A DNA stretch of 64,000 nucleotides from Candidatus Latescibacterota bacterium (GTDB taxonomy: Bacteria > Latescibacterota > UBA2968 > GCA-2709665): assembly GCA_965116875.1 (NCBI GenBank), contig OZ220733.1, positions 3,456,001-3,520,000 of the forward strand. The letters run 5' to 3'. The notes under the pieces are model-generated. The model did no database searches, was not told the DNA's origin, and saw nothing but the letters and a program-made list of their open reading frames with translations. Shown here piece after piece: positions 24,883-49,064 of this stretch. How positions within the stretch are numbered: the first letter of the stretch is position 1; each line of letters starts with the position of its first letter. Both the position numbers and the translations under genes were made by a program.

Positions 24883-24955
24883 GTAGGGGCGACCGGCCGG
24901 TCGCCCTATGTATGCCATTCGCCAACGCACGGGCGACCACAAGGGGCGCCCCTAC
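24883..24955. repeat. Inverted pair of GTAG REP elements
   Basis: GTAGGGGCGACCGGCCGGTCGCCCTA followed by GGGCGACCACAAGGGGCGCCCCTAC. Confidence 0.8.
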
Positions 24956-24971
24956 GATCGGAGGTACCGCA

Positions 24972-25772
24972 ATGAAAGTCGGCATTTACGCCTCGTATTT
25001 CGGCAAGGACGATCCCAAAACGTTCCCGGACGTCGAGTCTTTTATCGATCTCGCGCGTGAACTGCAGCTGGACGTGATCGACTTCCGGGTGGACGTGGGT
25101 TTCGGCTCCCTGGACCGCGACTATCTTCGGGGTCTGAAGATAAGGTGCCTGAAAGCCGGCCTGCCCATCGGCTATCTCGCCTCCGGCGGCCATTTCGTAG
25201 GCACGGACGAGGAGTTGCGACAGAAGGTGGAGCAGGCGAAGGCAGACGTGGAAGTGGCCGCGTACCTCGGAGCGCCGATGATCCGGCTCTTCTGCGGGGC
25301 GCCGGGGGTGGGGGATGCTGAACGCGAGATCCGTTGCTTTCAGGACGTGTGCGATTTTGCGGCCGATGCCGGGATTATCGTGGGCCTTCAGAATCACCCG
25401 AGCACGGGCGATAACGTGCTGCGCATTCTGCGGGAAACCGACCGCGAGAACTTCACCTTCATCCTGGATACCGGCCAGTGGGTGGGGTCGCCGGGGCTGA
25501 ATCGCGGCGTGGGTGATCCGGACGTGGACATCTACCGCTTCATGGAACAGACCGCGCCACATGCGTCCCACGTCCGTGCCAAGATCTACAAGATCGACAG
25601 CGGGCGGGAGGAGTGGCTGGATTACCCGCGCATCGTCGGCATTCTCAAAACGGTCGGCTTCAACGGTGTGGTTTCGATCACGTTCGAGGGGCAGGACGTC
25701 AACGAATGCGACGACCGGGAAACCTTCCGGCTGGCGGCCCGGCACCTGCGTGATACCATCGCCGCGGCATAG
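24972..25772 (+). CDS. Sugar phosphate isomerase/epimerase (xylose-isomerase-like TIM barrel)
   Basis: LGAPMIRLF, GLQNH, LDTG, HVRAK, LDYPRIV...GFNGVVSITFEG; GGAGG RBS. Confidence 0.82.
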   Translation: MKVGIYASYFGKDDPKTFPDVESFIDLARELQLDVIDFRVDVGFGSLDRDYLRGLKIRCLKAGLPIGYLASGGHFVGTDEELRQKVEQAKADVEVAAYLGAPMIRLFCGAPGVGDAEREIRCFQDVCDFAADAGIIVGLQNHPSTGDNVLRILRETDRENFTFILDTGQWVGSPGLNRGVGDPDVDIYRFMEQTAPHASHVRAKIYKIDSGREEWLDYPRIVGILKTVGFNGVVSITFEGQDVNECDDRETFRLAARHLRDTIAAA

Positions 25773-25812: not shown

Positions 25813-26541
25813 ATGCGGCGACTGACCGACTTCCGTGTCCTCACGTTCGACTGCTACGGCACCCTGATCGACTGGGAGTGCGGCATCTGGGACGCATTGC
25901 AGCCGCTGATCATGCGCAACCCGGGCTCGCGCTTCACGAGAGACGACGCGCTGCGCGCCTTCGCCCAATGCGAGAGCCGTCAGGAGCAGGCCACGCCCGG
26001 CCTTCGCTATCCGGAACTGCTCACCCGGGTGCATGGGCGCATCGCAGAAATGTCAGGCCTCAAAACCGACGAGGAACTCAACGCTGCGTTCGGCGCGTCG
26101 TTACCGCATTGGCCCGCGTTCCCCGACACCGCCGACGCGCTGCGAATCCTCAAGCAACACTTCAAGCTGGTGATCCTATCCAACGTCCACCGAGACGGCA
26201 TCGCCGCCTCGAACCGCAAGCTGGGCGTCGAGTTCGACGCCATCTACACTGCGGAAGACATCGGTTCCTACAAGCCCGCCGACGCCAACTTCGAGTACCT
26301 GATCTCCCACCTGAAGTCCGACCTGAGCGTGGAACCCCCGGACGTACTGCACACCGCGCAGAGCCTCTACCACGACCATGTCCCGGCACGGAATTTCGGC
26401 CTGGCTACCGCCTGGATCGACCGGCAGCGCCTGACGGAGGGCGGGAGTTGGGGCGCAACCGAGCGGGTGGAATCGATGCCCGAAACGGACTACGTCTTCT
26501 TCTCCTTCGCCGAAATGGCGGACGCGGTGGCGGGCGCCTGA
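25813..26541 (+). CDS. HAD-superfamily hydrolase (haloacid dehalogenase type II-like)
   Basis: FDCYGTLIDWE motif I, ILSN, YTAEDIGSYKP, HTAQSLYHDHVPA. Confidence 0.9.
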   Translation: MRRLTDFRVLTFDCYGTLIDWECGIWDALQPLIMRNPGSRFTRDDALRAFAQCESRQEQATPGLRYPELLTRVHGRIAEMSGLKTDEELNAAFGASLPHWPAFPDTADALRILKQHFKLVILSNVHRDGIAASNRKLGVEFDAIYTAEDIGSYKPADANFEYLISHLKSDLSVEPPDVLHTAQSLYHDHVPARNFGLATAWIDRQRLTEGGSWGATERVESMPETDYVFFSFAEMADAVAGA

Positions 26542-27014
26542 AGCCGGACGGCTATGTTGTCCTGGAGAGCAGGATCGCGGCTTCCACCCTGGAAGGCCGT
26601 GCCCTTAGCGCTCTTTTTCTACCCTTTTGTTCCCATCCCGAATTCAACTATCAGGCGAACGTACGGTTCAGGCCAGGGATAGAGCCTCAGATTGCGGCTA
26701 TATCTTTCGGTAATCGGAAAACTCACGAAAAATTAATAAAAATCATCAGAAAGGCATAGGAATTTCCAAAATATATGATTATTATCACGATACACAGTTC
26801 ATTCGGCGGCAGACTTTTGGCACCGGCGTATTCTCCGATTCCACCTGATGGGTTCCGCGTGGGAGCAATCGACCCACACGGAGCAGGCGTTGCAAGATCA
26901 GCCACCTAGCCGCACCTCGGCCGACAAATCGGATTGGATTCTGTGCGAATTCATAAGAAAGACGAGGATTCGGAAATGCAAGCCACCGGATATCGCCTCA
27001 GCGGAAGGAAAGGC

Positions 27015-30000
27015 ATGAATGTCTGCATTCTTGCAGTCGTCTCCATTATCCTCACACTGGTGTTTGCTGGCGACGCCTGCCCGCAGGAAACAGGCCACGT
27101 ACCGTTCTGCAAGCCTATCGATCTCTCGCAGGTGCATCCTGAGGGCTCTGAAGCTGCGGGCAAGCGGGCACTCGGTCTGAACACGGGCGATCCACGGACG
27201 GTGCGGGTGATTTACTTCGTACCCAGTGACCGTTCGTTTTCAATCACCGTAGAAGACTCGATACAAAGGGCGGTACGGCAGGTGCGGGCTTTTTTTGCCG
27301 AACATATGAAGGCGCACGGCTTTGACGTCAACGCCATCAACATTGAAACAGCGGACGACGGTGAGCCGCTGATCCATCGTTTCACGGGACAACACCCCAA
27401 CAACCACTACGCCGACGATATGCACTCCGCTGTCTTCAGGGAGGTCCGCCAGGATTACGATACCAATTCGAATACCTATGTCGCCTTCATCGACAATAGC
27501 CGAATCTTTGCAGCGCGCGGAGGCAGAAACGGGAAAACCGGTGGAGAGGCGTCCATGCGCGTGGACGTTGACTGGCAAACGGTGGCGCATGAACTGGGAC
27601 ACGGGTTCGGCTTACACCACGATTTTCGAAACGATGCGTACGTCATGTCATATGGCAATGAACCGGACAGTCTTTCGGCTCTGGCTGCTGAATTCCTTTC
27701 CGTGCATCCATACTTCAATCCCGGGATAACAACCCAATCGACGGCTAGTCCCACCGTCGAACTCATTTCGTCCCGTAAGTTTCCACCGAACGAGGAAGAG
27801 ATCGATGTTCAATTCAAGGTGGCGGATGCAGACGGGCTTCAACAGTTGATTCTGTTTGCGATGACGCCGCCAATTAATTGGGGTGGGGGATTCCCGGAAA
27901 TAAAGGCGTGGCGCGGCATGGCGAAGGAGGTAGATGCCGTCATTGACTTCCAGTACGCACGCGACGCCGTTGGGATAATACAGAACCCCGATGTGGAGAG
28001 AATTCATGTTAATGCGGTAGACACGGATGGAAATGTCGGGCAGGCATGGTTCAATCTCGTGAGTATTTCGCCATATCACTTCGCCTCGCTCAGTGGGCAT
28101 ACGCACGCGGTCTTCAGCGTGTTGTTCTCGCCGGACGGAAAGGTCGTAGCTTCCGGTTCAGACGACGGTACGATTGGGTTATGGGACGTTGCGTCGAGTA
28201 CGAGACTTGCGACCCTTCCGCAACCAGGCGCTATCAATTCGGTGACGTTTTCGCCCGATGGCTCCACCATCGCTTCCGGATCATACGACGGGAATGTCCA
28301 CCTCTGGGCGGTTGCGACCGGACAACTCATTACCACGCTTGAAGCACAGGGCGGTGAAGTGTTGTCCGTGTCGTATTCACCTGATGGTTCGACCCTCGCA
28401 TCCTTGTCATCCGATGGCAAGATCCGTCTTTGGGAAGTCGTAACGAGAAAGACTGACGCAACACTCGTGGGTCCGCCCATCGGTGTCGGGTCGGTTTTCT
28501 TCTCGCCGGACGTGCTGTTCAGCCCTGATGGAACGATTCTTGCGTCCTGGTCGGGAGACAATGCGTTGAGGCTATGGGACGTGGCGACGGGCGCCAGACT
28601 TGCAATCCTGCCGCATTCACAGCTTGTCTCTACGGTGTCGTTTTCGGCCGACGGTTCAACCCTCGCTTCCGGTTCATCCGACGGCAACGTCTGGCTGTGG
28701 ACGGTTGCAGCGGGGGAACAAATCCACACACTGGATGGACATTCTGGGGCGGTCGCGTCGGTGTTGTTTTCACCTGACGGTATGACCCTCGCTTCCGGTT
28801 CATACGACAATACGGTCCGGATTTAGCGAGTCGAAACGGGAGAGGCCGTCACCTCGCTTACAGGACACACGCAGGGTGTCTCATCGGTGTTGTTTTCACC
28901 CGACGGAACCATACTTGCTTCCACTTCACGGGACAATACCGTGAAGTTATGGGACATTGCGACGGGCGCGAGTCTTGCCACCTTTCGGCATGCACACTTT
29001 GCCCCTTCGATGTCATTTTCGCCGGATGGTCGACTCCTCGCTACTTCGGATAACAAAACGGTCGAGTTATGGGACCTGTCCGCGTGGACCCTGCCGCGCG
29101 CGCAGACCGTGACGATCATTTCAGGTGACAACCAGGAAGGCGCACCCGGCGCCGCATTGGCTGATCCGCTGATCGTTGAAATACGAGATCAGTTCGGTGA
29201 ACCCATAGCCGGCGCGCAGGTCACGTTTACGGTCGTTGCAGGCGATGGAAGCCTCACCGGCGGATTCACGACCGAGAATGTCACATCCGGTCCCGACGGC
29301 AGGGCGGAGGTACTCTTCACCCTCGGTCCAAATCCTGGTCCTAGTAACGTCAAGGTATCCATCACCGAACTGGCAATAGAAACCTTCAAAGCCGTGGGCA
29401 TTGGAACCCCGGTTGTAACGGGTGACGCCCGTGATTATCCAACGTGGCATCTGCCACGTGATGCCGCACTGCGCCTGGCCAGGGGTGCCATTGGCGAAAG
29501 CCAAAGGGCGGTTGTCTTCTCGCCTGACGGGAGGTTTGTTGCTGTTGCAAGTGGTATTGGAGTGTGGCTCTACCACGTGGAGAACCCGAAAAGATCCGCT
29601 CTGCTGCCCTCGGGTGTCGTCCATTCGGTGTCTTTTTCGCCGGACGGCAACACGCTTTTCTCATCGGGAGGTTCGGGGAGCGAGGGAGAGGTCATGCTGT
29701 GGGACGTGGCAACGCAAACCCACACCCGCATACCCATTCAAGAGGGTGACTTCGCCAATCTACTGTTATCACCGGATGGAGCCACCCTTGCCTACCATGG
29801 AGGCTATTCGACCCTTAAAATGCGGGATGTGACGTCGGGTGCTGCTGCGTGGACTCTGGGGACGTTTGAAGCGTTTAAGACAGATCCTACATGTCTAACG
29901 TTTTCGCCGGATGGTGCCACCTTCGCTTCCGGGCATTGGGACGGGACCATCCGGCTATGGGACGTGGCATCACGCACGATTGCTACGACCCTGGAGGGGC

Positions 30001-31715
30001 ATCGTCGCTATATCGACTCCGTGTCCTTTTCTCCGGATGGAAGTACCCTGGCGTCGGCTTCCGCTGACGGTACAGTCCAGATATGGGACATCGCGACGGG
30101 CACGTCGACCGTCACCATCCGCGATTGGTCGCAGCCCATTTGTGTGGCGTTTTCGCCAGATGGTGACCGCCTGGCTTCGGGCTGGTGGGATGGGAGCGTT
30201 ACACTGTGGGACATTGCGACACGGCGAAGTCTCGCCAAATATAACGACCATGGTGACAGGGTTCAGGCGGTTTCGTTCTCTCCGCTGGGAAAGACTCTGG
30301 CCACGGCATCTGAAGATGGAACCGTCAAACTCTTCGACCTGGCCAGCGGCAATGCCAATACCCTTTTCGGCCATTCGGGCCCGATTTGGGGTATGGCATT
30401 TTCGCCGGACGGTAGATCACTTGCTTCCCGTTCCGGTACATCCCAGGGAAAGGTCGAAATATGGAACGCTGTTACTGGAAGGATGGTCGCCTCTCTCGGC
30501 GAGCAGAGGTGCTCGCCCGTTAGATCGCTATCCATCTCACCTGACGGGACAACGCTTGCGATCGGATCACAAGATAGTACGGTACGCTTATGGGACCTTG
30601 TCACTCTGACGAATTCCGCCAGACTTGCACACGGAAGTCAGGTTGGGGCGGTTTCGTTTTCACCCGACGGCACTTTACTCGCCTCCTCGGACAAGACGGC
30701 AACGGTAAGCCTGTGGAGCGTCAGGAACGAGAAGATGATCAGGGAGTTTTCGGGCGTACACGATTGGGTCACAATGCTGGTTTTCTCGCCAGATGGATCA
30801 ACTTTGGCGTCAGGATTGCGCAACGGCGAGATCAGGGTGTGGGACGTGACGACGGGCGCTGTCATCCGTGACTTCAAAGGCCATTCTTCGCCGTTAATCT
30901 CCATGGCCTTTGTGCAGGACGGGACAGCGCTTGCTTCCGGCTATTTCGGCGGCGAGATCAGGGTGTGGGACCTGGCGACGGGCTCGCAAGGCGCCACTCC
31001 GAAAGGAACGTGGGGACAATGCCTGGCGTTCTCACCCGACGGCACGATGTTCACCACACGGCAGCATAAAACGGTGATGCTGCGCGACATCTCCACGGGC
31101 GACGATATCGCGACCTATTCGGGGCACAATCACCAGGTCCTTAGCGCAAAATTCACACCGGATGGCAGGACACTCGCGACGGGATCTTATGATGGGACGA
31201 TCCTGCTATGGGATTTGCAACGCCTTCATTCTGTGCCCTTTGATATGAAGAGTGTCTCCGGCATCGAGCAGAAAGCGCCGGCAGGGACAGCGTTAGCCCA
31301 GCCGTTTGTGGTCTCGGTGCGGGACAAAAATGGGGATCCTAACGCCGGCGTCGTCGTCACCTTCGAGGTTACCGCTGGCGGCGGCACGCTTTCGGTAACC
31401 ACCGACACGACCGGCGCCGATGGAAACGCCGCCACGACCCTGACATTGGGTACACAGCCGGGGACAAACACCGTTGTCGCAACGGTCGGTGATCTAAAGC
31501 AAGTGGCTTTTACTGCCATTGGCGAACCGAACCCCGACTTCGATGGCGACGGTAAGGTTGGCTTCGGCGATTTTCTACTATTTGTGGAGAGGTTCGGTCT
31601 CAGTCAGGACGACGACGGATATGAAGTTCGGTACGATCTGGACGGCAACGGCGCGGCGGGATTCTCGGACTTCCTGATATTCGCGGGTAATTTTGGGAAG
31701 AACGCAGCGAATTAG
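27015..31715 (+). pseudogene. Secreted zincin-metallopeptidase / WD40 / Ig (Big_1) / WD40 / Ig / dockerin-like protein interrupted by one in-frame TAG (28824-28826)
   Basis: Track ORFs 26934-28826 and 28887-31715 share a frame; the TAG sits at the Trp of a WD repeat (NTVRI*RVETGEAVTSLTGHT); HELGHGFGLHH zinc motif; C-terminal DFDGDGKVGFGDF..DLDGNG. Confidence 0.8.
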
Positions 31716-31784
31716 GCTGTTGTCAGGCGGGGAACTACGAAACTGGTTGAGGGGTGGTTCGGATACCGCCCTTGCTGCACGCGC

Positions 31785-31964
31785 CCTACACACGCCGACT
31801 CGCTGCGATTCCTCAAGCAGCACTACAAACTCGCAATCCTCACAATCATCCGCGAGGGTATCGCCGCCTCGAACCGCAAGCTGGGCGTAACGTTCGACGC
31901 CATCTATACAGCGGAAGACATCGGCGCCTGCAAGCCGGCCGACGCCAACTTCGAATACCTGTCT
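31785..31964 (+). pseudogene. Diverged internal fragment of the HAD gene (equivalent to ~26121-26305)
   Basis: Reads ADSLRFLKQHYKLAIL...GIAASNRKLGVTFDAIYTAEDIGACKPADANFEYL with a frameshift. Confidence 0.85.
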
Positions 31965-32098
31965 CAAACGAACAGGTACATAACTTGCCTCCTTGATGAA
32001 CGTTATGTGACAACTATCGGAAACCTTACGCGACGAGTATATCGATATTTTCTTACACCGCGCTAAGGGATGTCTTCGCGCGATCTGGTGTTTAGAGA

Positions 32099-35000
32099 AT
32101 GCGTTTCCTTGTCTTTAGACATTCGCTCTCATGGCTACTGCAAACCGTTCGATTCACGCTCGGCGCCTCGGTAATGTTTTGCCTGTTGTTATTCGTTCTA
32201 CCGTGGTCGCCGTCCACGCAGCCCAGCGGGTTTTTCCTCACGCTGGACCTGGACGATGCCGCAGCCGACCAGGCTGTTTCCTCGCTCGACCTCCTTCGCG
32301 ATCAGCCCTTCTCCATCCAGATCTTCGGTAAGGATATTCAGAATGCCACCGGCATTTTCGTGCGCTTGCGTTTCGATGCATCCGAGGTCCTATACGTGGG
32401 CTTCGATCCGGGTGATGTGCTGCCCAGCGTCCAGGCCGCCGTACAGCAGGATTCCACGTCCCTTACCATCGCCGTCTATTCCTCGAGTGGTTCCGCATCG
32501 GTGAACGCGGGTCGGATCGGCACGTTTCGCTTCCGTACGACGGACGCGTTTTCGGACACGGAGGTGTGGTTGGTGGACGCGGGACTTTCCCGCGGCGGGC
32601 AGATCGAGACGATCTCACCTGACATTGGCGTGGCGCTGCACGTGGCCGCGGCTCCATCTCCGGACTTCGACGGCGACGGCGTGGTGGGCTTCTCGGACTT
32701 CGTGGCCTTCGCCGGTGTATTCGGGACAGAGCGTGGCGACAACAGGTACGTGGCGGCGTACGATCTGAACGGCAACGGCGGCATCGGCTTCGATGACTTT
32801 GTGGTCTTCGCCAGCAACTTCGGCAAGAATCCCAATCGCGCTCCCACTTTCGGCGCGGCGCCGCGGGTGACACGTACCTTGGAAGAAAATACGGCTGCCG
32901 GTGAGCCCATCGGGAACCCGGTCACGGCCACGGATGCCGACGGCAATTCCCTGACGTACCGCCTGCGTGGCGTGCACGCGGACAGCTTTGCGATTAAACC
33001 GGGCACGGGTCAGCTTCTCACGAAGGCAGGGATTGCGTACGACCACGAGGCCATGGACAGGTATTCCGTGACGGTACGCGCCAGCGACGCGCAGGGCGGT
33101 CGCGCCACGGTTGTGGTGGGCATCACGGTCACGGATGTGGACGAACCCCCTTCCGCGGCGCCAGATAGCGTGCGGGTCGCTACCCTCGAGGGCGCGCTTG
33201 CCGTGACGTGGACGCCGTCGCTGGACGAGATCGGCAAGCCCACCGTGAGCGGGTACGAGGTGGGGCATAGGCCGGCAGAGGCCCAAGTATGGCGGGAGGG
33301 GCTGCTGGTGGAAGGCCGCACGGATACTGGCGTCACATTGTCAGGTCTGACCAATGATCAGGCGTATCACGTGCGCGTGCGGGCATTGAACGACGAGGGT
33401 GCAAGCCCCTGGTCGGCGCCCGTTGCGGGTGCTCCCACGGCGGGTCCGCGCCCCCGTGGCGTGGTCCGCGACCTGACGGTAAACGTAGACAGCGTCGCGC
33501 AGGTGAACCTCGCCAGCCTGTTCACACGGCCCGCCCTCGGGGCGCTGACCTACGGCGCGACGTCGTCGGACGAGGGGGTTGCCACAGTCACCGTGGCGGA
33601 TACGATGGCGACAGTGTTCGGCGTGGCCACGGGGCGTGCGACCCTCACCGCCACGGCCAGGGACGTGTACGGCGACAGCGCACAGACGAAGTTAGGCGTG
33701 GTCGTAACGACATCGTCAGCGCCACCGCAAAACAACAGGCCACCGTCCTTCGACGACGGATCGGCCACGTCGCGCACCTTGGCGGAGAACACGCCCGCAC
33801 GCCGGCCCATCCAGCATCCGGTGCGCGCCACCGACCCGGACGATGACCTCGTGACGTACAGACTGTCGGGGCCGGACTCCGCCAGTTTCGCCGTTGACAC
33901 AGGTACAGGGCAACTGCGCACGTTGTCGGGCATCACATATGACTTCGAGGACAACGACCGGTATTCCATAATTCTGGAAGGCAGCGATCCTTACGGCGAA
34001 TCCGCCACGATCGGCGTCACGGTACACGTGTCCGACGTGGACGAGCCGCCCGAGATTCCCGCGGCGCCGGTGGTCCAGCCCGCGTCGACGACCAGCCTGG
34101 CGGTCACGTGGGACGCGCCGGACAACACGGGTCCGGATATCACCGACTACGACGTGCAATATCGGAAGAGCGGCAGCTTCATCCCCCATTCACACATAGG
34201 GCCAGGGACGAGTGCGACCATCATCGACCTCGACGTCAACACCCGCTACGAGGTGCAGGTGCGGGCAACGAACGACGAAGGGAACTCCCAATATTCCCGC
34301 TCCGGCTTCGGCGTCACCAGTTCCAACCTCCCGCCGGTGTTCGACGAGGGACAAAGCGCCACGCGCGAGGTGGCAGAAAATACCAGCGGTGTGCAGGACC
34401 TGGGCACGCCCCTGCGCGCGAACGACCCGGAAAACACAGCAGTGACGTACAGCCTTTCCCGCGGCGACACCGGGAGCTTCGACATCGATGAGAATACGGG
34501 GCAGCTGCAGACGAAAACCGGCGTGACCTACGACTTCGAGGCGAAGGACCGCTATTCCGTGACGGTGCAAGCTCAGGACGAACAGAACGGCCGCGCCACC
34601 ATCTCCGTGACCGTCAACGTGACCGACGACGACAGCGAGACGCCGGAGACGCCCGATAAGCCCACGATCACCGCACAGACGCTGAACAGCCTTTCCATAC
34701 GCTGGACGGCGCCTGCCAACACCGGGCCTGCCATCAACGACTACGACGTGCAGTACCGGGAGGGAAGCAGCGGCGCTTTCACCGACTGGCCGCACACGGG
34801 GCCCGGGACGACCACGACCGTCACCGGCCTGAACCCGAACACAGCGTACCAGGTGCAGGTGCTGGCCCGTTCGCCCGAAGGGGAGAGCTCCTGGTCCGCG
34901 TCGGCAGATGCCAGGACCGTGGCCAACCGTGCGCCCACGTTCAACGAGGGCACGAGCACCACGCGCTCATTGGCTGAAAACACCATGGGTACACACGACA

Positions 35001-38419: not shown

Positions 38420-38554
38420 TCTGGTGTTCGCGGGCGGTGGGAGGTGCCTTCTAGATCGTGTCTGCGCAGGGCGTGTTCAGTTGCCAGGACGGAGACATCA
38501 GCGAATAATTCCGCAGGATGCACTTATCACCATCCACAACATCTGCCGACATCT

Positions 38555-38622
38555 CTCGTCCGGAACGCTGACCTACGGCGCGACGTCGTCCAGCGAGGGG
38601 GTTGCCACGGTCACCGTGGCGG
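38555..38622 (+). repeat. Duplicated fragment of the cadherin/Fn3 gene (33535-33599)
   Basis: CGCTGACCTACGGCGCGACGTCGTC..CGAGGGGGTTGCCAC.GTCACCGTGGCGG shared. Confidence 0.8.
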
Positions 38623-38627
38623 TTACA

Positions 38628-38837
38628 ATCCCTCGGACGTGCTGCACACAGCGCAGAGTCAGTACCACGACCACGTACCCGCGAGGAAATTCGGGCTGGT
38701 CACCGCCTGGATCGACCGGCAGCGGCTTTCGGAGGGCGGGTGCTGGGGCGCAACCGATCGGGTGGAAGAGATGCCGAAGACCGACTATGTCTTCTTTTCG
38801 CTTGGCGAGATGGCGGAGGCTGTGGAGGGGGTTTGAA
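38628..38837 (+). pseudogene. Diverged 3' fragment of the HAD gene (equivalent to ~26333-26541)
   Basis: PSDVLHTAQSQYHDHVPARKFGLVTAWIDRQRLSEGGCWGATDRVEEMPKTDYVFFSLGEMAEAVEGV*; the downstream GCGGCTTCCA..CTGGAA.GCC hairpin also matches ~26577-26600. Confidence 0.88.
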
Positions 38838-39156
38838 GCCAATGACCCGGCGTATACCACTGGCAGGGCGGCTTCCAGTCTGGAAAGCCCTCCCGATTAC
38901 GCTTTTTCCGTCCTGATTGGTTCCATCCGGAATATAGCATTCTCATCTAAAATGTGCTTCATGGTCCGAACGGCAACGCCAGTTGGGCCGGTATACCTGG
39001 AGGTTTACAGACAAACCCACTTGCAATCCTTCGCGTCTCAGAAAATCTCATTAGGTTTCTTAATGGATGCGTGTTATCGTAGGTTTACGGTAACATCGCA
39101 TCAAATCTCGGTCTCCGCTGCACGCATCTGGTATCAATCAATCCAGGAGATAGGGC

Positions 39157-42108
39157 ATGAGACAACTAGCTCGTTCGTTCATCCTGATTTTTGTCTTCCT
39201 GCAACCGCTTTTCGCTCAGGATTTTAGCGATCCCAACAGTAATCAGATGCGGCAAGTGCCCGACGGAGCGATTGCACGCCTTGGTAAGGGCGCAATTGGT
39301 GAGAGCGACCGGGCGATCGCTTTTACTCCGGACGGCAGGCTTGTCGCGGTGGCAAGCGGTATTGGCGTATGGCTGTACAATGTGGAGGACCCGGAACAGG
39401 CCACACTGTTTCCCTCCGGCGTTGTCCATTCATTGTCGTTTTCCTCCGATGGCAGCAAGCTTGTCACGGCAAGCGGCCAGTGGAGTGATGGACAGATCAA
39501 GTTATGGGACATGGCGACGGGGACAGGTATTCGCACAGTGCAGGGGTGGACCTTTGGCAGTGCCGCATTTTCTCCTGACGGCAGTACCGTCGCCTACCGC
39601 GCAAGAGATGGCGTGTCTCTTGAACTACGGGATGTAGCCTCATGGATTCCCGCGTCCACCCGTGTCCGCGATGGCGCCAGTTTTCTCCATTGTCTGACGT
39701 TTTCCCCGGATGGCGCGCTCATTGCTACAGGGCACAGTGACGGCACGGTCATTCTGTGGGACGTGGCGACGCGCACCCTTGCCGCCACACTTGCTGGCCA
39801 CAATGGGGAGGTCTACTCCGTAGCTTTCTCACCGGACGGTAGTACCCTTGCCACAGGTGCATCTGACGAAACCGTCAAGCTGTGGGACACTGCAACGCGC
39901 AACAACTTCACGACGCTCGAGGTAAACCAACTTGCGACAACCGTCGCGTTTTCTGCTGACGGATCCCTCATCGCCGCCGGAACATGGTTTCTCAGAGTCA
40001 AACTCTGGAATGCAGCGACAGGTCAAGAATTAAATACATTCAGCGACCATCGCTCTCGGATCCGTGCGGTTTCGTTCTCTCCTGACGGAACGACGCTTGC
40101 CTCTGCTTCCGTCGATGGCACAGTTGTGCTTAGAAATCTGGCTGCTGGAAACACCACCGCCATTGACGGTCATTCGGGGCCGGTTCTGGGTTTAGCATCG
40201 TCACCGGACGGCGGCACACTTGCGTCCTATAACATGTCGTATGGGTCGGGGGTCAAAATATGGGACACGGCAACGCAACGCAAGATCACGACGCTTCGCG
40301 GTCATTATGGTTTACCAATCAAATCGATATCCATTTCACACGACGGAACGACGCTTGCTTCGGCATCCGGCAATAGTGTTATCCTTTGGGACCTGGACAC
40401 ATTTACGGATTTCGCACATCTGAATCACGAGGATCTACCGTATGAGGTCTCGTTTTCACCCGATGGCACTGTTCTGGCCACCGGAGGCTGGCCCGGATGG
40501 GTCAACCTTTGGAATGTGCGAACGCAAGAACAGACCACCCGTGTTACCGGACTGAGCGATGAGGTCAAGGAGCTGGAATTCTCGCCGGACGGAGAATACC
40601 TGGCTTCGGGTCTGAACAACGGTGAGATTAGAACCTGGGACCTGTCCACGGGTGAGACCGCAGCCGTCCTTCAAGGGCTTACCCGTTACGTACTTTCAGT
40701 TGCCTTTTCTTCCGACGTCACAAAGCTGTATGCCGGTTCGTTCAGTGAATCGGTGATGGTATGGGACCTGAAGACAGGCTCGACGATTGAGACACGAAAG
40801 CCAGAGACGTTCGAAAGGGTCGCGTTCTCGCCGGACAGGTCGATGTTTGCCACCGGCTCGCAGGACGGAAACGTAAGGCTCTTCGACATGTCGACGGGAG
40901 AGATCCTATTCACCTTCGAAGGTCATGCGCACTGGGTCAGCAGCCTGTTGTTTTCCACGGACGGTAAGACCCTCGTGTCGGGATCTTATGACGGCACGAT
41001 TCTGTTTTGGGACCTGCAACGCCTTCAATCCGTCCCCTTTGTTTTGAAGGGGGTCTCCGGCATTGAGCAGAAGGCTCCCGCAGGGGCGGTGTTAGCCCAG
41101 CCGTTTGTGGTCTCGGTGAGGGACAAAAATGGGGAACCTCGCGCCGGCGTCGTTGTCACGTTCGAGGTTACCGCCGGCGGCGGCACGCTTTCGGTAACCA
41201 CCGTCACGACCGATGCCAGCGGAAACGCCGCCACGACCCTGACATTGGGGACCCGGCCGGGGACAAACACGGTCGTCGCAACGGTCGCTAATCTCGAGCC
41301 GGTGGCCTTTACTGCCATCGGACAGGCCGTACCCCATGTTTTGCAAGGGGTCTCCGGCATCGAACAGAAAGCGCCGGCAGGGACGGCGTTGGCCCAGCCG
41401 TTCGTGGTCTCGGTGCGGGACAGGAATGGGGAACCCTCCGCCGGTGTCGTTGTCACGTTCGAGGTTACCGCTGGCGGCGGCACGCTTTCGGTAACCACCG
41501 TCACGACCGATGCCAGTGGAAACGCCGCCACGACCCTGACATTGGGGACCCGGCCGGGGACAAACACGGTCGTCGCAACGGTCGCTAATCTCGAGCCGGT
41601 GGCCTTTACTGCCATCGGACAGGCCGTACCCCATGTTTTGCAAGGGGTCTCCGGCATCGAACAGAAAGCGCCGGCAGGGACGGCGTTGGCCCAGCCGTTC
41701 GTGGTCTCGGTGCGGGACAGGAATGGGGAACCCTCCGCCGGTGTCGTTGTCACGTTCGAGGTTACCGCTGGCGGCGGCACGCTTTCGGTAACCACGGACA
41801 CCACCGATGCCAGTGGAAACGCCGCCACGACCATGACATTGGGGCCCCAGCCGGGGACAAACACCGTTGTCGCAACGGTCGCTGATCTCAAGCCAGTGAC
41901 ATTTACTGTCATTGGCGAGGCCAACCCTGACTTTGATGGCGACGGTAAGGTTGGCTTCGGCGATTTTCTACTATTTGTGGAGAGGTTCGGTCTCAGTCAG
42001 GACGACGACGGATATGAAGTTCGGTACGATCTGGACGGCAACGGCGCGGTGGGATTCTCGGACTTCCTGATATTCGCGGGTAATTTCGAGAAGACTGTAG
42101 GTAGTTAG
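39157..42108 (+). CDS. Secreted WD40-repeat protein with three tandem Big_1/invasin-like Ig repeats and C-terminal dockerin-like EF-hand pair
   Basis: Signal peptide QPLFA, PDGAIARLGKG cap, about 14 GH..WD repeats, three 99-aa repeats, DFDGDGKVGFGDF. Confidence 0.9.
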   Translation: MRQLARSFILIFVFLQPLFAQDFSDPNSNQMRQVPDGAIARLGKGAIGESDRAIAFTPDGRLVAVASGIGVWLYNVEDPEQATLFPSGVVHSLSFSSDGSKLVTASGQWSDGQIKLWDMATGTGIRTVQGWTFGSAAFSPDGSTVAYRARDGVSLELRDVASWIPASTRVRDGASFLHCLTFSPDGALIATGHSDGTVILWDVATRTLAATLAGHNGEVYSVAFSPDGSTLATGASDETVKLWDTATRNNFTTLEVNQLATTVAFSADGSLIAAGTWFLRVKLWNAATGQELNTFSDHRSRIRAVSFSPDGTTLASASVDGTVVLRNLAAGNTTAIDGHSGPVLGLASSPDGGTLASYNMSYGSGVKIWDTATQRKITTLRGHYGLPIKSISISHDGTTLASASGNSVILWDLDTFTDFAHLNHEDLPYEVSFSPDGTVLATGGWPGWVNLWNVRTQEQTTRVTGLSDEVKELEFSPDGEYLASGLNNGEIRTWDLSTGETAAVLQGLTRYVLSVAFSSDVTKLYAGSFSESVMVWDLKTGSTIETRKPETFERVAFSPDRSMFATGSQDGNVRLFDMSTGEILFTFEGHAHWVSSLLFSTDGKTLVSGSYDGTILFWDLQRLQSVPFVLKGVSGIEQKAPAGAVLAQPFVVSVRDKNGEPRAGVVVTFEVTAGGGTLSVTTVTTDASGNAATTLTLGTRPGTNTVVATVANLEPVAFTAIGQAVPHVLQGVSGIEQKAPAGTALAQPFVVSVRDRNGEPSAGVVVTFEVTAGGGTLSVTTVTTDASGNAATTLTLGTRPGTNTVVATVANLEPVAFTAIGQAVPHVLQGVSGIEQKAPAGTALAQPFVVSVRDRNGEPSAGVVVTFEVTAGGGTLSVTTDTTDASGNAATTMTLGPQPGTNTVVATVADLKPVTFTVIGEANPDFDGDGKVGFGDFLLFVERFGLSQDDDGYEVRYDLDGNGAVGFSDFLIFAGNFEKTVGS
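41050..41915 (+). repeat. Three tandem 297-bp intragenic repeats (Ig-like domain)
   Basis: GGGGTCTCCGGCAT recurs at 41050, 41347 and 41644; near-identical DNA; homologous single copy at ~31250-31525. Confidence 0.9.
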
Positions 42109-42154
42109 GCCAATTTTGGGTTGGAAATTACCATGTTGGCGGTGGGGTGGTTCG

Positions 42155-42343
42155 GACAGCGCAGAGTCTATACCACGACCACGTACCGGCGAGGAAATTC
42201 GGGCTGGCCACCGCCTGGATCGACCGGCAGCGGCTGTCGGAGGGCGGGAGTTGGGGGCGACCGAGCGGGTGGAAACGACGCCCGAAACGGACTACGTCTT
42301 CTTCTCCCTCGCCGAAATGGCGGACGCAGTAGCGACAGTCTGA
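42155..42343 (+). pseudogene. Diverged 3' fragment of the HAD gene (equivalent to ~26352-26541), frameshifted
   Basis: TAQSLYHDHVPARKFGLATAWIDRQRLSEGGSW / ATERVETTPETDYVFFSLAEMADAVATV*. Confidence 0.88.
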
Positions 42344-42544
42344 AACCGGTCTGCGGCGACGCGCGCCTCCATTTCTCGCGATTTCGAGGAAAATTCGACA
42401 GAAATCCGTTCGAGAGCTTCCACGTTGTCAGTAATCTATTAGGTTTTTTAATAGCGGAATGTTATATTCGTCCTAAGGCAACCTCAAGGTAATCTACGTG
42501 TGCGTTCTTGCACGTCAGGCATCATCCACGAAAGGAGACTGGTG

Positions 42545-44644
42545 ATGAGGCATTTTACCTCCATCATCGTATTGACTGTTGTCTTCCTGCAACCGCTTTT
42601 TGCCCAGGACTTCAGCAATCCCAATGCGTATCGGACGCGGGATCTTCCTGAAGGAGCGATCGCCCGGCTCGGAAAGGGATCCATTGGCCAGGGAGACCGG
42701 TCGATTGCATTTTCGCCGGATGGTGAACTCGTTGCGGTGGCCAGTGGCATAGGTGCATGGCTGTACAATGTTAAGGACCCGGAAACATTCACCTGGTTTC
42801 CCGCCGACGTTGTCCACTCGGTGTCTTTTTCTCCCGACGGGACAAAGCTCGTTACGGCAGGAGGTATGTGGGGGAAGGGTGAGGTGATACTTTGGGACGT
42901 GGCAACGGGAACCCCCAGCCGAATTGAAAGTGGTGGGTCCATCGTCGATGTCTCGTTTTCGCCGGATGGCCGAACTCTCGCATACGCCGCACGTGGAGGG
43001 CCGGTGGTTAAACTCCGGGATGTGTCCTCTCGTACTGTTGTGACCACCGAAGGGAGATATGATTTCCGCGTGGCGTGTCTCGCGTATTCGCCGGATGGCG
43101 CCATCATCGCCACGGGACTTGGGAACGGCACGATCATGCTTTGGGACGTTGCAACGCGCACTCTCGCCGCCACACTTTCCGGCCACAATGGAGAGGTCTA
43201 CTCCGTAGCTTTCTCGCCGAACGGCAACACCCTGGCCTCAGGCGCTTCTGACGAAATCGTCAAACTATGGGACGTTGCATCACGTACGAACTTCGAGACG
43301 CTCGAGGTAAACTCCCCTGTGACGACCGTCGCGTTTTCTTCTGACGGTTCTCTTGTCGCCGCCGGTACATGGTTCCTGAGAGTCAAACTCTGGAACGCAA
43401 CCACGGGTCATGAAGTAGATGCATTCACCGACCATCGCGCTCTGGTCCGCGGGATTTCATTTTCTCCGGACGGGACGACGCTCGCTTCCGTTTCCGAAGA
43501 TGGAGCGGTTGTGCTGAGGGATCTCGCCGCAAAAACCGTGACGACCATTGACGGCCATTCGGCGTCGGTTTTGCGTCTGGCGTTTTCACCGGACGGCGCC
43601 ACGCTGGCGTCCTATAACAGTTCGTATGGGTCAGGAATCAAAATTTGGGATACGGCAACACGACGCAAGATCACGACGCTTCGCGGGCATTATGGCTTAC
43701 CGATCTCATCGATATCCATTTCACACGATGGAAATACCCTCGCTTCGGCATCCGGCAATAAAGTCATCCTTTGGGACCTGGACACGTATACAGATTTCGC
43801 ACATCTGGATCACGAGGATGGGCCATCTGCGGTGTCGTTTTCACCCGATGGCGCGGTTCTGGCCACCGGAGGCTGGCCGGGATGGGTAAGGCTTTGGAAC
43901 GTCCGAACACAAGAACAGACCACTCGTGTGACTGGACTGAGCGACGCTGTCAAGGAGTTGGAATTCTCGTCGGACGGAAAACTTCTGGCTTCGGGTCTGG
44001 ACAACGGTGAGATAAGGACCTGGGACCTGTCCACGGGCAAGACCGCGGCCGTCCTGAACGGGCTTACGAGTTACGTACTCTCAGTTGCCTTCTCTTCCGA
44101 CGTCACAAAGCTTTATGCCGGTTCGTACAGTGAATCGGTGAAGGTATGGAACCTGGAGACTGGCTCGACGATCGTGACGCGAAGCCCGGAGTTGTTTGAA
44201 AGAGTCGCGTTCTCACCGGACAGGACCATGTTCGCCACCGGTTCGCAGGATGGCAATGTAAGGCTCTTCGACATGTCGACGGGGGAGATCGTCTCCACCT
44301 TCGAAGGGCATGCGCACTGGGTCAGCAGCGTGTCGTTCTCCCAGGACGGCGAGACCCTCGCGTCCGGATCTTATGATGGGACGATTCTGTTTTGGGATCT
44401 GACTCAGGTCGACGGGTCTCAAACACCCGGTCCCGATATCGACGGGGCCCGCTTTGGTCCCGATTTCGATGGCGATGGCACCGTTGGCTTTACCGACTTC
44501 GTTCAATTTGCGGCGAATTTCGGGTTAAGTCAGGGCGATCTGGGCTACGACGAACGGTACGATCTGGATGACGACGGGCAGGTAGGTCTTTCGGACTATC
44601 TGATATTTGCGAAGAACTTCGGCCGACAGACGGAATCCAACTAA
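42545..44644 (+). CDS. Secreted WD40-repeat protein with C-terminal dockerin-like EF-hand pair
   Basis: AAGGAG RBS, signal peptide QPLFA, WD repeats, PDFDGDGTVGFTDF..DLDDDG. Confidence 0.9.
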   Translation: MRHFTSIIVLTVVFLQPLFAQDFSNPNAYRTRDLPEGAIARLGKGSIGQGDRSIAFSPDGELVAVASGIGAWLYNVKDPETFTWFPADVVHSVSFSPDGTKLVTAGGMWGKGEVILWDVATGTPSRIESGGSIVDVSFSPDGRTLAYAARGGPVVKLRDVSSRTVVTTEGRYDFRVACLAYSPDGAIIATGLGNGTIMLWDVATRTLAATLSGHNGEVYSVAFSPNGNTLASGASDEIVKLWDVASRTNFETLEVNSPVTTVAFSSDGSLVAAGTWFLRVKLWNATTGHEVDAFTDHRALVRGISFSPDGTTLASVSEDGAVVLRDLAAKTVTTIDGHSASVLRLAFSPDGATLASYNSSYGSGIKIWDTATRRKITTLRGHYGLPISSISISHDGNTLASASGNKVILWDLDTYTDFAHLDHEDGPSAVSFSPDGAVLATGGWPGWVRLWNVRTQEQTTRVTGLSDAVKELEFSSDGKLLASGLDNGEIRTWDLSTGKTAAVLNGLTSYVLSVAFSSDVTKLYAGSYSESVKVWNLETGSTIVTRSPELFERVAFSPDRTMFATGSQDGNVRLFDMSTGEIVSTFEGHAHWVSSVSFSQDGETLASGSYDGTILFWDLTQVDGSQTPGPDIDGARFGPDFDGDGTVGFTDFVQFAANFGLSQGDLGYDERYDLDDDGQVGLSDYLIFAKNFGRQTESN

Positions 44645-44747
44645 AGCAAGATCGAAGGCATAGGATGCTATACACGTCCTGGACGTCCATGTCATACCGT
44701 GTTTCGCAGGCATACGTTCTTTAAGCAATATCGGAAGGAAACCGGGG

Positions 44748-46844
44748 ATGAAGCATTTTACCACCGTCATCGTGCTGACAGTTGTCTTCCTGCAACCGCT
44801 TTTCGCCCAGGACTTCAGTAATCCCAATGCGTATCGGACGCGGGATCTTCCTGAAGGAGCGATCGCCCGACTTGGAAGGGGGGCCATTGGCCACGGAGAC
44901 CGGGCTGTTGCATTTTCACCGGACGGCGAGCTTGTTGCGGTGGCCAGCGGCATTGGCGTCTGGCTGTACAATGTTAAGGACCCGGAAACAGCCACCCGGT
45001 TTCCCGCCGACGTTGTCCATTCGGTGTCTTTTTCGCCCGACGGGACAAAGCTTGTCTCGGCAGGAGGTATGTGGGGGAAGGGCGAGGTGATACTATGGGA
45101 TGTGGCAACGGGGGCCCCCAGCCGGATTGAGAGTGGCGGAGACATTGTCGATGTCTCGTTTTCGCCGGACGGCAGAACCATCGCATACAGTGCACGTGGA
45201 GGGCCGATGGTTAAACTCCGGGATGTGTCCTCGCGGACTGTTGCGACCACCCAGGGGCGGTACGATTTCGGCTTTACCAGTCTGTCGTTTTCACCGGATG
45301 GCGCCCTCATCGCAACGGGACATGAGAACGGCACGGTCATGCTGTGGGATGTGGCAACACGCACGCTTGCCGCCACGCTTGCCGGCCACAGTGGAGAGGT
45401 CTATACCATAGCTTTCTCACCGGACGGCAGTACCCTTGCCTCCGGTGCTTCTGACCAAACCGCCAAACTATGGGACGTTGCAACGCGCACGAATATCTCG
45501 ACGCTCGCGGTAAACAGGCTTGTGACGACCGTGGCGTTTTCTTCCGATGGTTCCCTCATCGCCACAGGAACAAGCTTCCTCAATGTCAAACTCTGGAACG
45601 CAACAACGGGTCGAAATCTGGATACGTTCAACGACCATCGAGCCCTGGTTCGCGCGGTTGCGTTCTCTCCGGACGGAACGACGCTCGCCTCTATTGCCGA
45701 CGATGGCTCGGCTGTGTTGAGGGATCTGACGGCAGGGAACATTACACCCATTGCCGGCCACTGGGGAACGGTTACGGGTATGGCATTTTCACCGGATGGC
45801 GCCACAGTGGCGTTCACTAACGGTTCATATGGGTCGGGGGTCAAAATATGGGACACTGCAACGCGACGCAAGGTCACGACGCTTCGCGGACATTATGGCT
45901 TACCGATCTCATCGATATCCATTTCACACGATGGAACGACCCTTGCGTCGGCGTCCGGCAATAAAGTTATCCTTTGGGACCTGGACACGAATACGGATTT
46001 TGCGCATCTGGATCACGAGGATCTACCATCTGAGGTGTCGTTTTCACCCGATGGCGCTGTTCTGGCCACCGGAGGCTGGCCGGGATGGGTGAACCTCTGG
46101 AACGTCCGAACGCAAGAACAGACCACTCGTGTGACGGAACTGAGCGACGCTGTCAAGGAGTTGGAATTCTCGTCGGACGGAAAACTCCTGGCTTCGGGTC
46201 TGAACAACGGTGAGATAAGGACCTGGGACCTGTCCACGGGCAAGACCGCGGCCGTCCTGAACGGGTTTACGAGTTACGTACTCTCAGTTGCCTTCTCTTC
46301 CGACGTCACAAAGCTATATGCCGGTTCGTACAGAGAATCGGTGAAGGTATGGAACCTGGAGACCGGGACGACAATCACGACACGAAAACCAGAGAGATTC
46401 GCAAAGGTCGCGTTCTCACCGGACAGGACGATGTTCGCTACAGACTCGTGGGAAGGCAACGTAAGGCTCTTCGACATGTCGACGGGAGAGATCCTCTCCA
46501 CCTTCGAAGGGCATGCGCACATCGTCACCAGCCTGATATTCCTACCTGACGGCAAGACCCTCGCGTCGGGATCTGCTGACGGCACGATCCTGTTTTGGGA
46601 TCTGACTCAGGTCGACGGGTCTCAAACACCCGGTCCCGATATCGACGGGGCCCGCTTTGGTCCCGATTTCGATGGCGATGGCACCGTTGGCTTTACCGAC
46701 TTCGTTCAATTTGCGGCGAATTTCGGGTTGAGTCAGGGCGATCTGGGCTACGACGAACGGTACGATCTGGATGACGACGGCCTGGTGGGACTTTCGGACT
46801 ATCTGATATTCGCGAAGAACTTCGGGAAGACCGCTGGGGACTAG
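44748..46844 (+). CDS. Secreted WD40-repeat protein, tandem paralog of 42545-44644
   Basis: Same signal peptide and architecture; 3' ~230 bp nearly identical to the paralog. Confidence 0.9.
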   Translation: MKHFTTVIVLTVVFLQPLFAQDFSNPNAYRTRDLPEGAIARLGRGAIGHGDRAVAFSPDGELVAVASGIGVWLYNVKDPETATRFPADVVHSVSFSPDGTKLVSAGGMWGKGEVILWDVATGAPSRIESGGDIVDVSFSPDGRTIAYSARGGPMVKLRDVSSRTVATTQGRYDFGFTSLSFSPDGALIATGHENGTVMLWDVATRTLAATLAGHSGEVYTIAFSPDGSTLASGASDQTAKLWDVATRTNISTLAVNRLVTTVAFSSDGSLIATGTSFLNVKLWNATTGRNLDTFNDHRALVRAVAFSPDGTTLASIADDGSAVLRDLTAGNITPIAGHWGTVTGMAFSPDGATVAFTNGSYGSGVKIWDTATRRKVTTLRGHYGLPISSISISHDGTTLASASGNKVILWDLDTNTDFAHLDHEDLPSEVSFSPDGAVLATGGWPGWVNLWNVRTQEQTTRVTELSDAVKELEFSSDGKLLASGLNNGEIRTWDLSTGKTAAVLNGFTSYVLSVAFSSDVTKLYAGSYRESVKVWNLETGTTITTRKPERFAKVAFSPDRTMFATDSWEGNVRLFDMSTGEILSTFEGHAHIVTSLIFLPDGKTLASGSADGTILFWDLTQVDGSQTPGPDIDGARFGPDFDGDGTVGFTDFVQFAANFGLSQGDLGYDERYDLDDDGLVGLSDYLIFAKNFGKTAGD

Positions 46845-46954
46845 AAAATTGTGAGGAAGGGAATTGCGATACTTGTGGAGGGGTGTTGCGGACTGCTCAG
46901 GCAGGTCTCTGACGGATCTCGTTTCAGATTGAAAATCCAGTCGGGCACGCGTGA

Positions 46955-47941: not shown

Positions 47942-48280
47942 CTCTGCAAATCCCTTCAATTCGCTGAACGGCGAACAAATCTCCGCACGTACCCCAACGG
48001 ATACCCCCACCCATTCCGCTATCGAATATACGCCCGTGTCCGTCTTTTGGGAAGATGGAAAATCGACGTACCCGTCGCAAATACCCATTCCATATCTTCG
48101 TCGACCGTCGCGACGTGCGAACGAACGCCTTTCGACATTCTCAGAAACCATTGCTCGAAATCTGAGCCGCTCCCTGAGCTTGTGGTCCCTGAGCCTGTCG
48201 AAGGGTCGGCGAAGGTCATTGATGAGGCCCAAACAGGGAGAAAAGGACTATGGCGTACGATCTAAACGCGAAGCCGTCTC

Positions 48281-48988: not shown

Positions 48989-49064
48989 TGGTGGAGCTGA
49001 TCGGGATCGAACCGACGACCTCATGACTGCCAGTCATGCGCTCTCCCAGCTGAGCTACAGCCCC
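48989..49064 (-). tRNA. tRNA-Ala (GGC)
   Basis: GGGGCTGTAGCTCAGCTGGGAGAGCG-CATGA CTGGCAG TCATG-AGGTCGTCGGTTCGATCCCGATCAGCTCCACCA, 76 nt, G3:U70 pair, encoded CCA. Confidence 0.97.

Follow-up and report, generated by a model that had tools for sequence, protein, structure and literature searches.

The closest described counterparts of the locus reported here are rhs arrays, for which homologous recombination with circular intermediates has been proposed (Jackson et al. 2009, PMC2935791), the type VI effector-immunity modules of Vibrio cholerae, attributed to homology-facilitated illegitimate recombination (Kirchberger et al. 2017, PMC5361080), and a tandem paralogue cluster of Staphylococcus aureus, attributed to unequal crossing-over (Tsuru and Kobayashi 2008, PMC2568036). 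The locus lies in a stretch of 64,000 nucleotides (nt), termed the window herein, from a Candidatus Latescibacterota bacterium (contig OZ220733.1, positions 3,456,001 to 3,520,000, assembly GCA_965116875.1), the source genome being a single contig of 5.45 Mb with ~62% G+C. Between an intact gene for a type II haloacid dehalogenase (HAD) and a convergent gene of the PhyH family, this genome carries a 20.4-kb array of genes for predicted secreted repeat proteins, interspersed with three pieces of the HAD gene that we call stubs (F1, F2, and F3). We consider it probable (at about 60%) that the HAD-PhyH interval is a hypervariable recombination hotspot with a recombination-driven paralog array, the stubs being scars of the events. 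Pfam searches gave the order HAD, g1, F1, cadherin/fibronectin type III gene, F2, g2, F3, g3, g4, and PhyH (minus strand), with all five large array genes on the same strand as HAD. The features are as follows (window coordinates, strand, description).

24018..24863, plus: PhyH-family dioxygenase gene (Pfam PF05721, E 5.6e-07), conserved upstream flank, syntenic in relatives
24912..25772, plus: xylose-isomerase-like TIM-barrel gene (Pfam PF01261, E 1.4e-18), conserved upstream flank, syntenic in 14/14 congeners
25813..26541, plus: intact HAD, haloacid dehalogenase type II (TIGR01428), 242 amino acids, source family of the stubs
26542..26975, plus: post-HAD spacer with a conserved stem-loop directly behind the stop codon; its first ~130 nt recur after F2
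26976..31715, plus: g1, with a signal-peptide-like start, a reprolysin-like M12 peptidase, WD40 propellers, Big_1, and a dockerin-like tail
31716..31783, plus: g1 3' tail (junction J1), ending just before F1, homologous to the tails behind g2 and g4
31784..31965, plus: F1, internal HAD piece (amino acids 104-164) with a 3-nt deletion (blastn)
32099..38419, plus: cadherin/fibronectin type III/Big_9 repeat gene, 2106 amino acids (Pfam)
38420..38629, plus: scar region made up of the cadherin tail, bases of an older HAD junction, ~60 nt of unassigned sequence, and a scrap (~60 nt) from inside the cadherin gene
38630..38836, plus: F2, HAD 3' end (amino acids 175-242), frame open to the HAD stop codon (blastn)
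38837..39156, plus: pre-g2 spacer with a HAD-like stem-loop and a leader motif common to g3 (alignment)
39157..42108, plus: g2, with a signal-peptide-like start, WD40 propellers, three Big_1 repeats, and a dockerin-like tail (Pfam)
42109..42155, plus: g2 3' tail (junction J2), homologous to J1
42156..42343, plus: F3, HAD 3' end from amino acid ~178 with a 1-nt deletion (blastn)
42344..42544, plus: pre-g3 spacer carrying the shared leader motif (alignment)
42545..44644, plus: g3, WD40 and dockerin-like, 699 amino acids (Pfam)
44748..46844, plus: g4, WD40 and dockerin-like, 698 amino acids, terminal member (Pfam)
46845..46954, plus: terminal-gene tail reaching the PhyH stop codon, unbroken version of the J1/J2 tails
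46955..48232, minus: second PhyH-family gene (Pfam PF05721, E 9.6e-24), conserved downstream flank, convergent with HAD

As in rhs C-terminal displacement, a string of displaced 3' pieces, each accompanied by a gene downstream, lies behind the intact gene to which they belong, and no dedicated recombinase takes part; the alternatives at rhs loci are laterally acquired. The rhs anchor, however, is the polymorphic toxin itself and its tips are the selected cargo, whereas the anchor here is an ordinary enzyme gene under purifying selection, the cargo consists of unrelated secreted repeat proteins, and many units come without any stub. With the V. cholerae modules the locus shares arrays that vary among close relatives and may also share a conserved, one-sided upstream anchor, the displacement of old modules downstream by new ones, and the movement of whole arrays by ordinary homologous recombination; there, retained immunity genes provide an obvious selective reason, whereas here paralogues of one family are retained and tandem duplication is clear. 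The S. aureus cluster is matched in its same-strand paralogues, its short spacing, a copy number that varies between genomes, and a recombination unit formed by a gene end, the spacer, and the start of the next gene, but its model does not include pieces of a non-family flanking gene or foreign alleles. Integron arrays are likewise ordered, one-directional series of single-gene units beside a fixed gene, with older units pushed back; unlike integrons, the locus has no integrase gene or fixed recombination site, and its units bring leaders of their own. Nothing resembling attC was found (Rfam matched only a tRNA), though no dedicated attC search was made.

In what follows, G000 is the genome that holds the window and G001 to G014 are its 14 congeners. 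Neighbours that are closest relatives and share junctions, the mark of a tandem cluster, were found in g3/g4 and in genes gA, gC, and gD of G010. An intact gene followed by its own fragments at the heads of units, the mark of a displacement array, was found in the window and equally in G010 and G013, but a fragment with every added unit was not, five of the nine filled arrays being stubless. The locus thus fits the known theme of displacement and tandem-paralogue arrays; what is new is the unrelated enzyme gene as anchor and the uncultivated sponge symbiont as host.

The HAD-PhyH interval across the genus

A comparison of gene content between HAD and PhyH, called for across strains in the original prediction (a reading of the letters of the window) and made here across the genus, showed the interval to be hypervariable between species. 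HAD orthologues with 82-88% amino acid identity are present in 13 of the 14 congeners and the second PhyH gene in all 15 genomes of the genus; in G001 (L033), HAD is lost and the TIM-barrel gene lies 13 nt from PhyH. Five of the 14 HAD-bearing genomes have an empty interval of 32-57 nt (G003, G004, G006, G009, and G014), and nine have a filled one of 5.1-37.5 kb (G000, G002, G005, G007, G008, G010, G011, G012, and G013). Even sister species differ, G000 being filled and G004 empty, and G010 filled and G014 empty; the underlying species tree was built from ftsK and ligA, which lie 2-13 kb from the array, and is thus a local tree. Array genes without exception have the orientation of HAD, and almost all can be assigned to one of two paralogous families, g1-like or g2/g3/g4-like.

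Stubs were found in four of the nine filled arrays: three in G000, four in G010, one in G013 that spans amino acids 108-241, and one in G005 that consists of the last 27 nt of HAD and the spacer. The other five arrays, with 1-6 genes, gave no stub in blastn searches (word size 7, E up to 1e-5), and several neighbouring genes in G010, G011, and G008 follow each other without stubs between them. Two blocks of the window have collinear counterparts in G010, one running from the TIM-barrel gene to the end of g1 (85%) and one from F1 to the end of the cadherin gene (88.4%); the cadherin orthologue of G010 is of equal length, with 86% amino acid identity and a synonymous divergence (dS) of 0.30. The post-HAD spacer is kept behind HAD in the filled arrays of the relatives, and the terminal-gene tail of every filled array is the unbroken version of J1/J2.

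The G013 array, at 37.5 kb the largest, also holds insertion sequences (DDE_Tnp_1_4, Mutator-family, and DDE_3; L023:3220-8421, L024:803-2092, and L024:4982-5893), pieces of a group II intron reverse transcriptase/maturase, and an Mrr/ResIII restriction-enzyme fragment; one transposase insertion truncates a g1-like gene. A metagenome scan with HAD added no arrays: of 80 loci kept, only L145 (2984 nt, 82%) possibly belongs to the genus.

Stubs, their substitutions and their exchanges

Searching the whole genome with HAD and its flank (blastn) returned exactly three extra pieces, all within the array: F1 (31784-31965, matching HAD at 26122-26306 with 82.8% identity over 186 nt), F2 (38630-38840, matching 26335-26545 with 81.0% over 211 nt), and F3 (42156-42349, matching 26353-26547 with 87.7% over 195 nt). 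Throughout the genus (15 genomes), whole-genome searches detected HAD pieces at this locus only. The intact gene, which scores 130.6 bits against the cutoff of 125.4 for the TIGR01428 equivalog (NCBIfam, residues 8-206), heads the array, and the stubs lie downstream with the units g2 and g3-g4 behind stubs; between g3 and g4 there is no stub. Blastn, NCBIfam, and Pfam therefore bear out the HAD gene, three pieces, and gene array of the original prediction, except that F1 is internal and not a 3' end.

The stubs start at scattered positions of HAD: at nt ~300 in F1 of G000 and G010 and in the G013 stub, at nt ~436-441 in F2, F3, and F4 of G010 and in a remnant in G000, at nt 527 and 541 in F2 and F3 of G000, respectively, and at nt 703 in G005. 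One constant crossover position in HAD was thus not seen, and starts spread over 400 nt argue against a site-specific crossover. Both junctions of F1 are common to G010, and its 5' junction also to G013.

Substitutions were analysed with Nei-Gojobori counts and binomial tests, assuming a ratio of nonsynonymous to synonymous divergence (dN/dS, omega) of 0.15 for functional HAD; intact HAD alleles have a median omega of 0.12-0.19 among themselves, and of 0.12-0.15 in the regions that correspond to F2 and F3. Differences from the resident HAD at the first, second, and third codon positions number 6/6/27 for F2 (chi-square p 1e-5), 5/3/13 for F3 (p 0.018), and 6/6/16 for F1 (p 0.028), in agreement with the third-position bias noticed in the original prediction. 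For F2 (dS 0.90, dN 0.10, omega 0.11, 14 of 39 differences nonsynonymous), a model with both lineages functional fits (p 0.73) and one with a single lineage neutral for the same time is rejected (p 0.0003); the alleles of G006, G010, and G014 are closer to it (dS 0.42-0.59) than the resident is. With 8 of 21 differences nonsynonymous, F3 gives the same result (p 0.64 and p 0.02, respectively). Since synonymous sites account for most of the differences between F2 or F3 and any intact allele, the two stubs appear to have been parts of working HAD genes until recently and look as if they had passed most of their divergence inside such genes. Between G000 and G010, F1 shows 8/5/9 differences at the three codon positions with an omega of 0.51 (14 of 22 nonsynonymous), neutrality fits (p 0.21), and constraint is rejected (p 0.003); it looks like an old stub, common to a second species and neutrally decaying since the split of G000 and G010. 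The claim that the fragments are functional alleles and not decayed duplicates therefore finds support for F2 and F3 but not for F1, and even the first two show damage, F3 being frameshifted and the 5' side of F2 scrambled.

Duplication within the array is evident from its members. g3 and g4 are 86.7% identical at the nucleotide level and are sisters in the family tree; in G010, stubs F3 and F4 have identical upstream junctions, are 95.5% identical, and are preceded by near-identical genes, and gA, gC, and gD, whose tails and stubs are identical, make up a single clade. The pairs g3/g4 and F3/F4 of G010 clearly point to in-place tandem duplication. Stubs and the resident HAD have evidently also exchanged sequence by conversion: F4 of G010 equals its resident HAD at 110/110 positions over nt 541-650 and then at 88.4% over the next 69 nt, and the last 69 nt of F3 in G000 are 92.8% identical to the resident, a stretch in which most intact alleles share 75-84% identity with the resident (that of G009, 88%). 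Such conversion blurs an allele from another lineage as the explanation for every stub.

One transfer between clades is apparent from the trees of G013, which has a foreign-type stub together with a foreign-type cassette. In the tree, its stub is placed with HAD alleles of the other clade's type (split support 100/98), and holding it with the alleles of its own clade is rejected (approximately unbiased [AU] test, p 0.0099); the g1 copy directly behind this stub groups with the g1 of the other clade (100/100), the copy of G011 excluded, and a position inside that clade and one beside it are both compatible with the AU test (p 0.41). In G005, g1 and its tail are followed by a 270-nt 3' piece of PhyH, small scraps, the last 27 nt of HAD, the spacer, and a gene. 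The PhyH piece shares 95.8% identity with the resident gene, and the gene after the spacer is only 69% identical to g1 in amino acids; we read this order as the insertion of a donor segment that spanned HAD to PhyH and not as the duplication of one unit. The scraps (L028:7771-8349) comprise ~100 nt left over from the 5' end of a cadherin gene and another segment that aligns with the end of an array gene of G013, which indicates that G005 formerly held more genes that have since been lost.

The stub tree was built from the last 201 nt of HAD, a length that does not suffice to place F2. In it, F3 and the resident HAD group together (support 83/91), and a sister position of F2 to the resident is rejected by a narrow margin (AU p 0.041). 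The tree of intact HAD genes largely follows the local species tree. We also considered dS as a between-gene clock for transfer (g1 of G000-G013 at 0.39 and g4 of G000-G007/G011 at 0.32-0.33 are less diverged than ftsK, ligA, the TIM-barrel gene, and PhyH at 0.50-0.84) and do not take it by itself as proof, because the dS of HAD is equally flat and yet the HAD tree is largely species-like.

Origin of the array

In the reading that we favour, a hotspot between HAD and PhyH would hold a tandem family of secreted WD40/dockerin-like proteins plus one cadherin gene, and the general recombination machinery of the cell would grow, shrink, and reshuffle the array by segmental duplication or unequal crossing-over, insertion of related segments from other lineages, deletion, gene conversion, and homologous exchange of whole units between species. 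Illegitimate joints would set the boundary of a unit inside HAD, either in a duplication or in the entry of foreign DNA anchored on HAD homology; any duplication or insertion with its left breakpoint inside HAD would leave a stub ahead of the displaced unit, which would then consist of stub, spacer, and gene. Homologous recombination among stubs, paralogues, and flanks would subsequently amplify, delete, convert, and transfer such units. F2 and F3 would be young stubs that served as the working HAD 3' end until recently, and F1 an old, decaying one; once formed, stubs would provide extra homology for deletion, conversion, and re-insertion, as by-products and not as an obligatory address. The reading starts from the observed anatomy, variability between species, selection signatures, shared junctions, duplication, conversion, and one inter-clade transfer; the order of events, and in-place duplication versus foreign insertion for any given stub, we infer.

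Several points weigh against this reading. F2, F3, and the resident HAD as one clade are not rejected in the 201-nt tree (AU p 0.156), and on phylogeny alone a purely local origin of the stubs in the window is possible; an origin of the fragments in other lineages, as originally predicted, is thus supported by the tree for the G013 stub and is possible for those of the window as well. The selection tests rest on just 21-39 substitutions and an assumed omega. At J1-F1 and J2-F3 the gene tail is broken off at one and the same base, a coincidence that is partly explained by a 60-nt deletion between short repeats at J1 but could hint at a preferred site. For the five precise empty sites, either a clean excision or an exchange for an empty allele has to be assumed, neither of which is demonstrated, and the species tree is built on two genes close to the array. 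Finally, no within-species polymorphism was seen, a second sample being identical over the parts covered.

Strict serial capture, the mechanism originally predicted, would have an incoming circle (stub-spacer-gene-tail) or a linear piece anchored on one side pair with the HAD 3' end, whereby a new HAD 3' end and gene enter and the old end and genes are pushed downstream. We regard it as rather doubtful. It accounts for F2 and F3 behaving as recently functional ends, F2 being nearer to foreign alleles than to the resident, and for the junction between tail and HAD nt ~300 that lies behind different genes in G000/G010 and in G013, as expected of a travelling closed unit; the G013 stub and its adjoining gene are both of the other clade's type, the insert of G005 ends with a piece of the far flank, and the models published for rhs and V. 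cholerae are of a similar type (PMC2935791, PMC5361080). But the stubless arrays with their 1-6 genes and the stubless neighbours, among them g3/g4 and several in G010, G011, and G008, do not fit, the largely species-like HAD tree gives no visible sign of a 3' end replaced along with each cassette, the extreme 3' end of the resident HAD is unlike the alleles of the genomes that share g1, and no circular form was seen among the assembled short contigs. The strict anchor model may possibly apply to individual units, but five stubless arrays of nine, the species-like HAD tree, and stubless WD40 arrays elsewhere in the genome speak against it as a general rule. Two points of the original prediction are not borne out as stated: HAD homology is not needed for array growth, as the stubless arrays, g3/g4, and a 12-gene WD40 array without stubs demonstrate, and the cargo is not a series of diverse captured genes, being almost all paralogous with several units from in-place tandem duplication.

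A bolder idea, which we think unlikely, is that the stub-spacer-gene-tail unit is a self-contained, integrase-free mobile cassette that would be excised as a circle via the stubs, move between co-resident sponge symbionts, and re-enter at HAD ends, with the stubs feeding the resident HAD by conversion. If this were true, the 3' end of a housekeeping-type gene would be a homology "address" for exchanging host-interaction genes.

Elements that carry a replacement 3' end of their target gene are exemplified by phage 21 and e14 at icd, and the array could be pictured as the remnant of tandem site-specific elements of this type that targeted the HAD 3' end and have since lost their integrases. Cargo flanked by direct repeats of the target 3' end is what such elements classically leave behind, mostly synonymous differences are what a surrogate gene end should show, and a tRNA-Ala gene is 2 kb away. 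Yet Pfam detected no integrase, excisionase, transposase, or recombinase domain in the array open reading frames (ORFs) of the window, two non-family ORFs matching 0 Pfam families, and the intergenic gaps of 104-738 nt are too short to hide an integrase gene, which confirms the originally predicted absence of integrases and transposases. The scattered stub starts do not mark one crossover point, there is one paralogous gene per unit, the transposases and group II intron pieces of G013 are separate insertions and not unit borders, and HAD pieces are confined to the locus throughout the genus; we therefore consider this explanation highly improbable.

The soundness of the assembly was assessed with short-read contigs of two public runs that have separate study codes, and these show 0 differences to it. 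The first run spans 26272-33545, and the second spans 26272-31391, 31664-33545 (one 1-nt gap), and 35882-40899. Independent contigs thus bridge the HAD-g1-F1-cadherin and cadherin-F2-g2 joints and cover the g1 stop codon in both runs, which indicates that these joints and the stop codon are real and makes the chimeric assembly that the original prediction had wanted checked unlikely there; no contig among the pieces listed bridges the g2-F3 joint. The high repetitiveness of the genes, with many short contigs from foreign organisms cross-mapping to their WD40 repeats, would favour an artefact, but metagenome repeats mis-joined into apparent stubs can be dismissed in view of these contigs and of the same HAD-g1-F1-cadherin-F2 order in the assembly of a different species. 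"Joints" among the Logan contigs, with sides of 20-31 nt within WD40 repeats, were attributed to other organisms cross-mapping and not taken as evidence for or against rearrangement. A third run, labelled sponge metagenome, contains a relative at ~91-98% identity.

Array genes, related loci and the symbiont repertoire

The peptidase domain of g1 matches Reprolysin_5 with 39.8 bits (Pfam). An in-frame TAG at 28824-28826, at a tryptophan codon conserved in other WD40 repeats, interrupts g1, whose orthologues in G010, G005, and G013 are uninterrupted; in G000, g1 is probably a recent pseudogene or split gene. Matches of the C-terminal tails to Dockerin_1 stay below the gathering score (21.4 and 19.2 bits, cutoff 22.9), and the tails are therefore named only dockerin-like/EF-hand-like. 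g2, g3, and g4 have the same tail and near-identical N-termini that resemble signal peptides and may function as such. The last ~600 nt of g2 are 88% identical to the end of g1, and the sequence shared at the ends of both genes (31533-31763 and 41926-42156, 88%) comprises ~180 nt of coding sequence and ~50 nt past the stop codons; this shared tail, as well as the homologous leader before g2 and g3, had been predicted and was recovered in alignments. The leader may be a promoter; a promoter/terminator scan gave counts like those of shuffled sequences (8 vs 6.2±2.5; 21 vs 17.3±4.3).

Compared with its G013 counterpart, J1 lacks ~60 nt between two short direct repeats. In the scar before F2, positions 38566-38622 are 93% identical to 33543-33599 in the cadherin gene, and the few bases of an older HAD junction in this scar also occur in G010. 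The sole Rfam match, tRNA-Ala(GGC) at 48989-49064 on the minus strand, is located ~750 nt past PhyH and ~2 kb from the array, with nothing inserted there.

The genome has a second array (C1:145436-171796) of ~12 same-strand WD40 genes of ~700 amino acids, 300-400 nt apart, in which only a ~100-nt upstream leader recurs and no piece of a flanking gene was found; none of the other WD40 arrays in the genome carries pieces of a flanking coding gene either. A tblastn search with the last 360 amino acids of g2, which include Big_1, gave 38 match clusters genome-wide, many of them tail-sized (~160-200 nt), and the dockerin-like tail would seem to be a module that the organism commonly uses for export or anchoring. 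The reprolysin-like N-terminal domain occurs at eight places in the genome.

Homologues of the HAD protein with 67-84% identity are found in metagenome-assembled genomes (MAGs) labelled as many phyla (loci L039-L113), the labels including Vicinamibacterales, Ca. Multivorans, Opitutales, Thermoanaerobaculia, Gammaproteobacteria, Nitrospinota, Binatia, and Thermodesulfobacteriota. Since this identity is far above the expectation for vertical descent, HAD may have been exchanged across the symbiont community. None of the 71 non-syntenic HAD loci has an array gene within 2 kb downstream, which makes the array specific to the locus of this genus. In one unclassified MAG, a second HAD-like piece (L085:4112-4192, amino acids 205-231, 78%) lies 1.4 kb downstream of an intact HAD, and the formation of HAD stubs may thus extend beyond one genus.

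Eukaryote-like repeat proteins are thought to mediate contact between sponges and their symbionts, and to our knowledge the diversification of such repertoires in uncultivated symbionts is poorly known. WD40 and fibronectin type III proteins have been reported for sponge Latescibacterota (PMC12993501). If the HAD-PhyH interval is indeed a recombination hotspot, the stubs of its flanking gene would be dated scars and a readable record of repertoire change, one in which the repertoire turns over between sister species and units cross species lines without mobile-element genes. The locus would thereby extend the idea of the displacement array from polymorphic toxins to non-toxin surface or secreted proteins, with an unrelated enzyme gene as the anchor.

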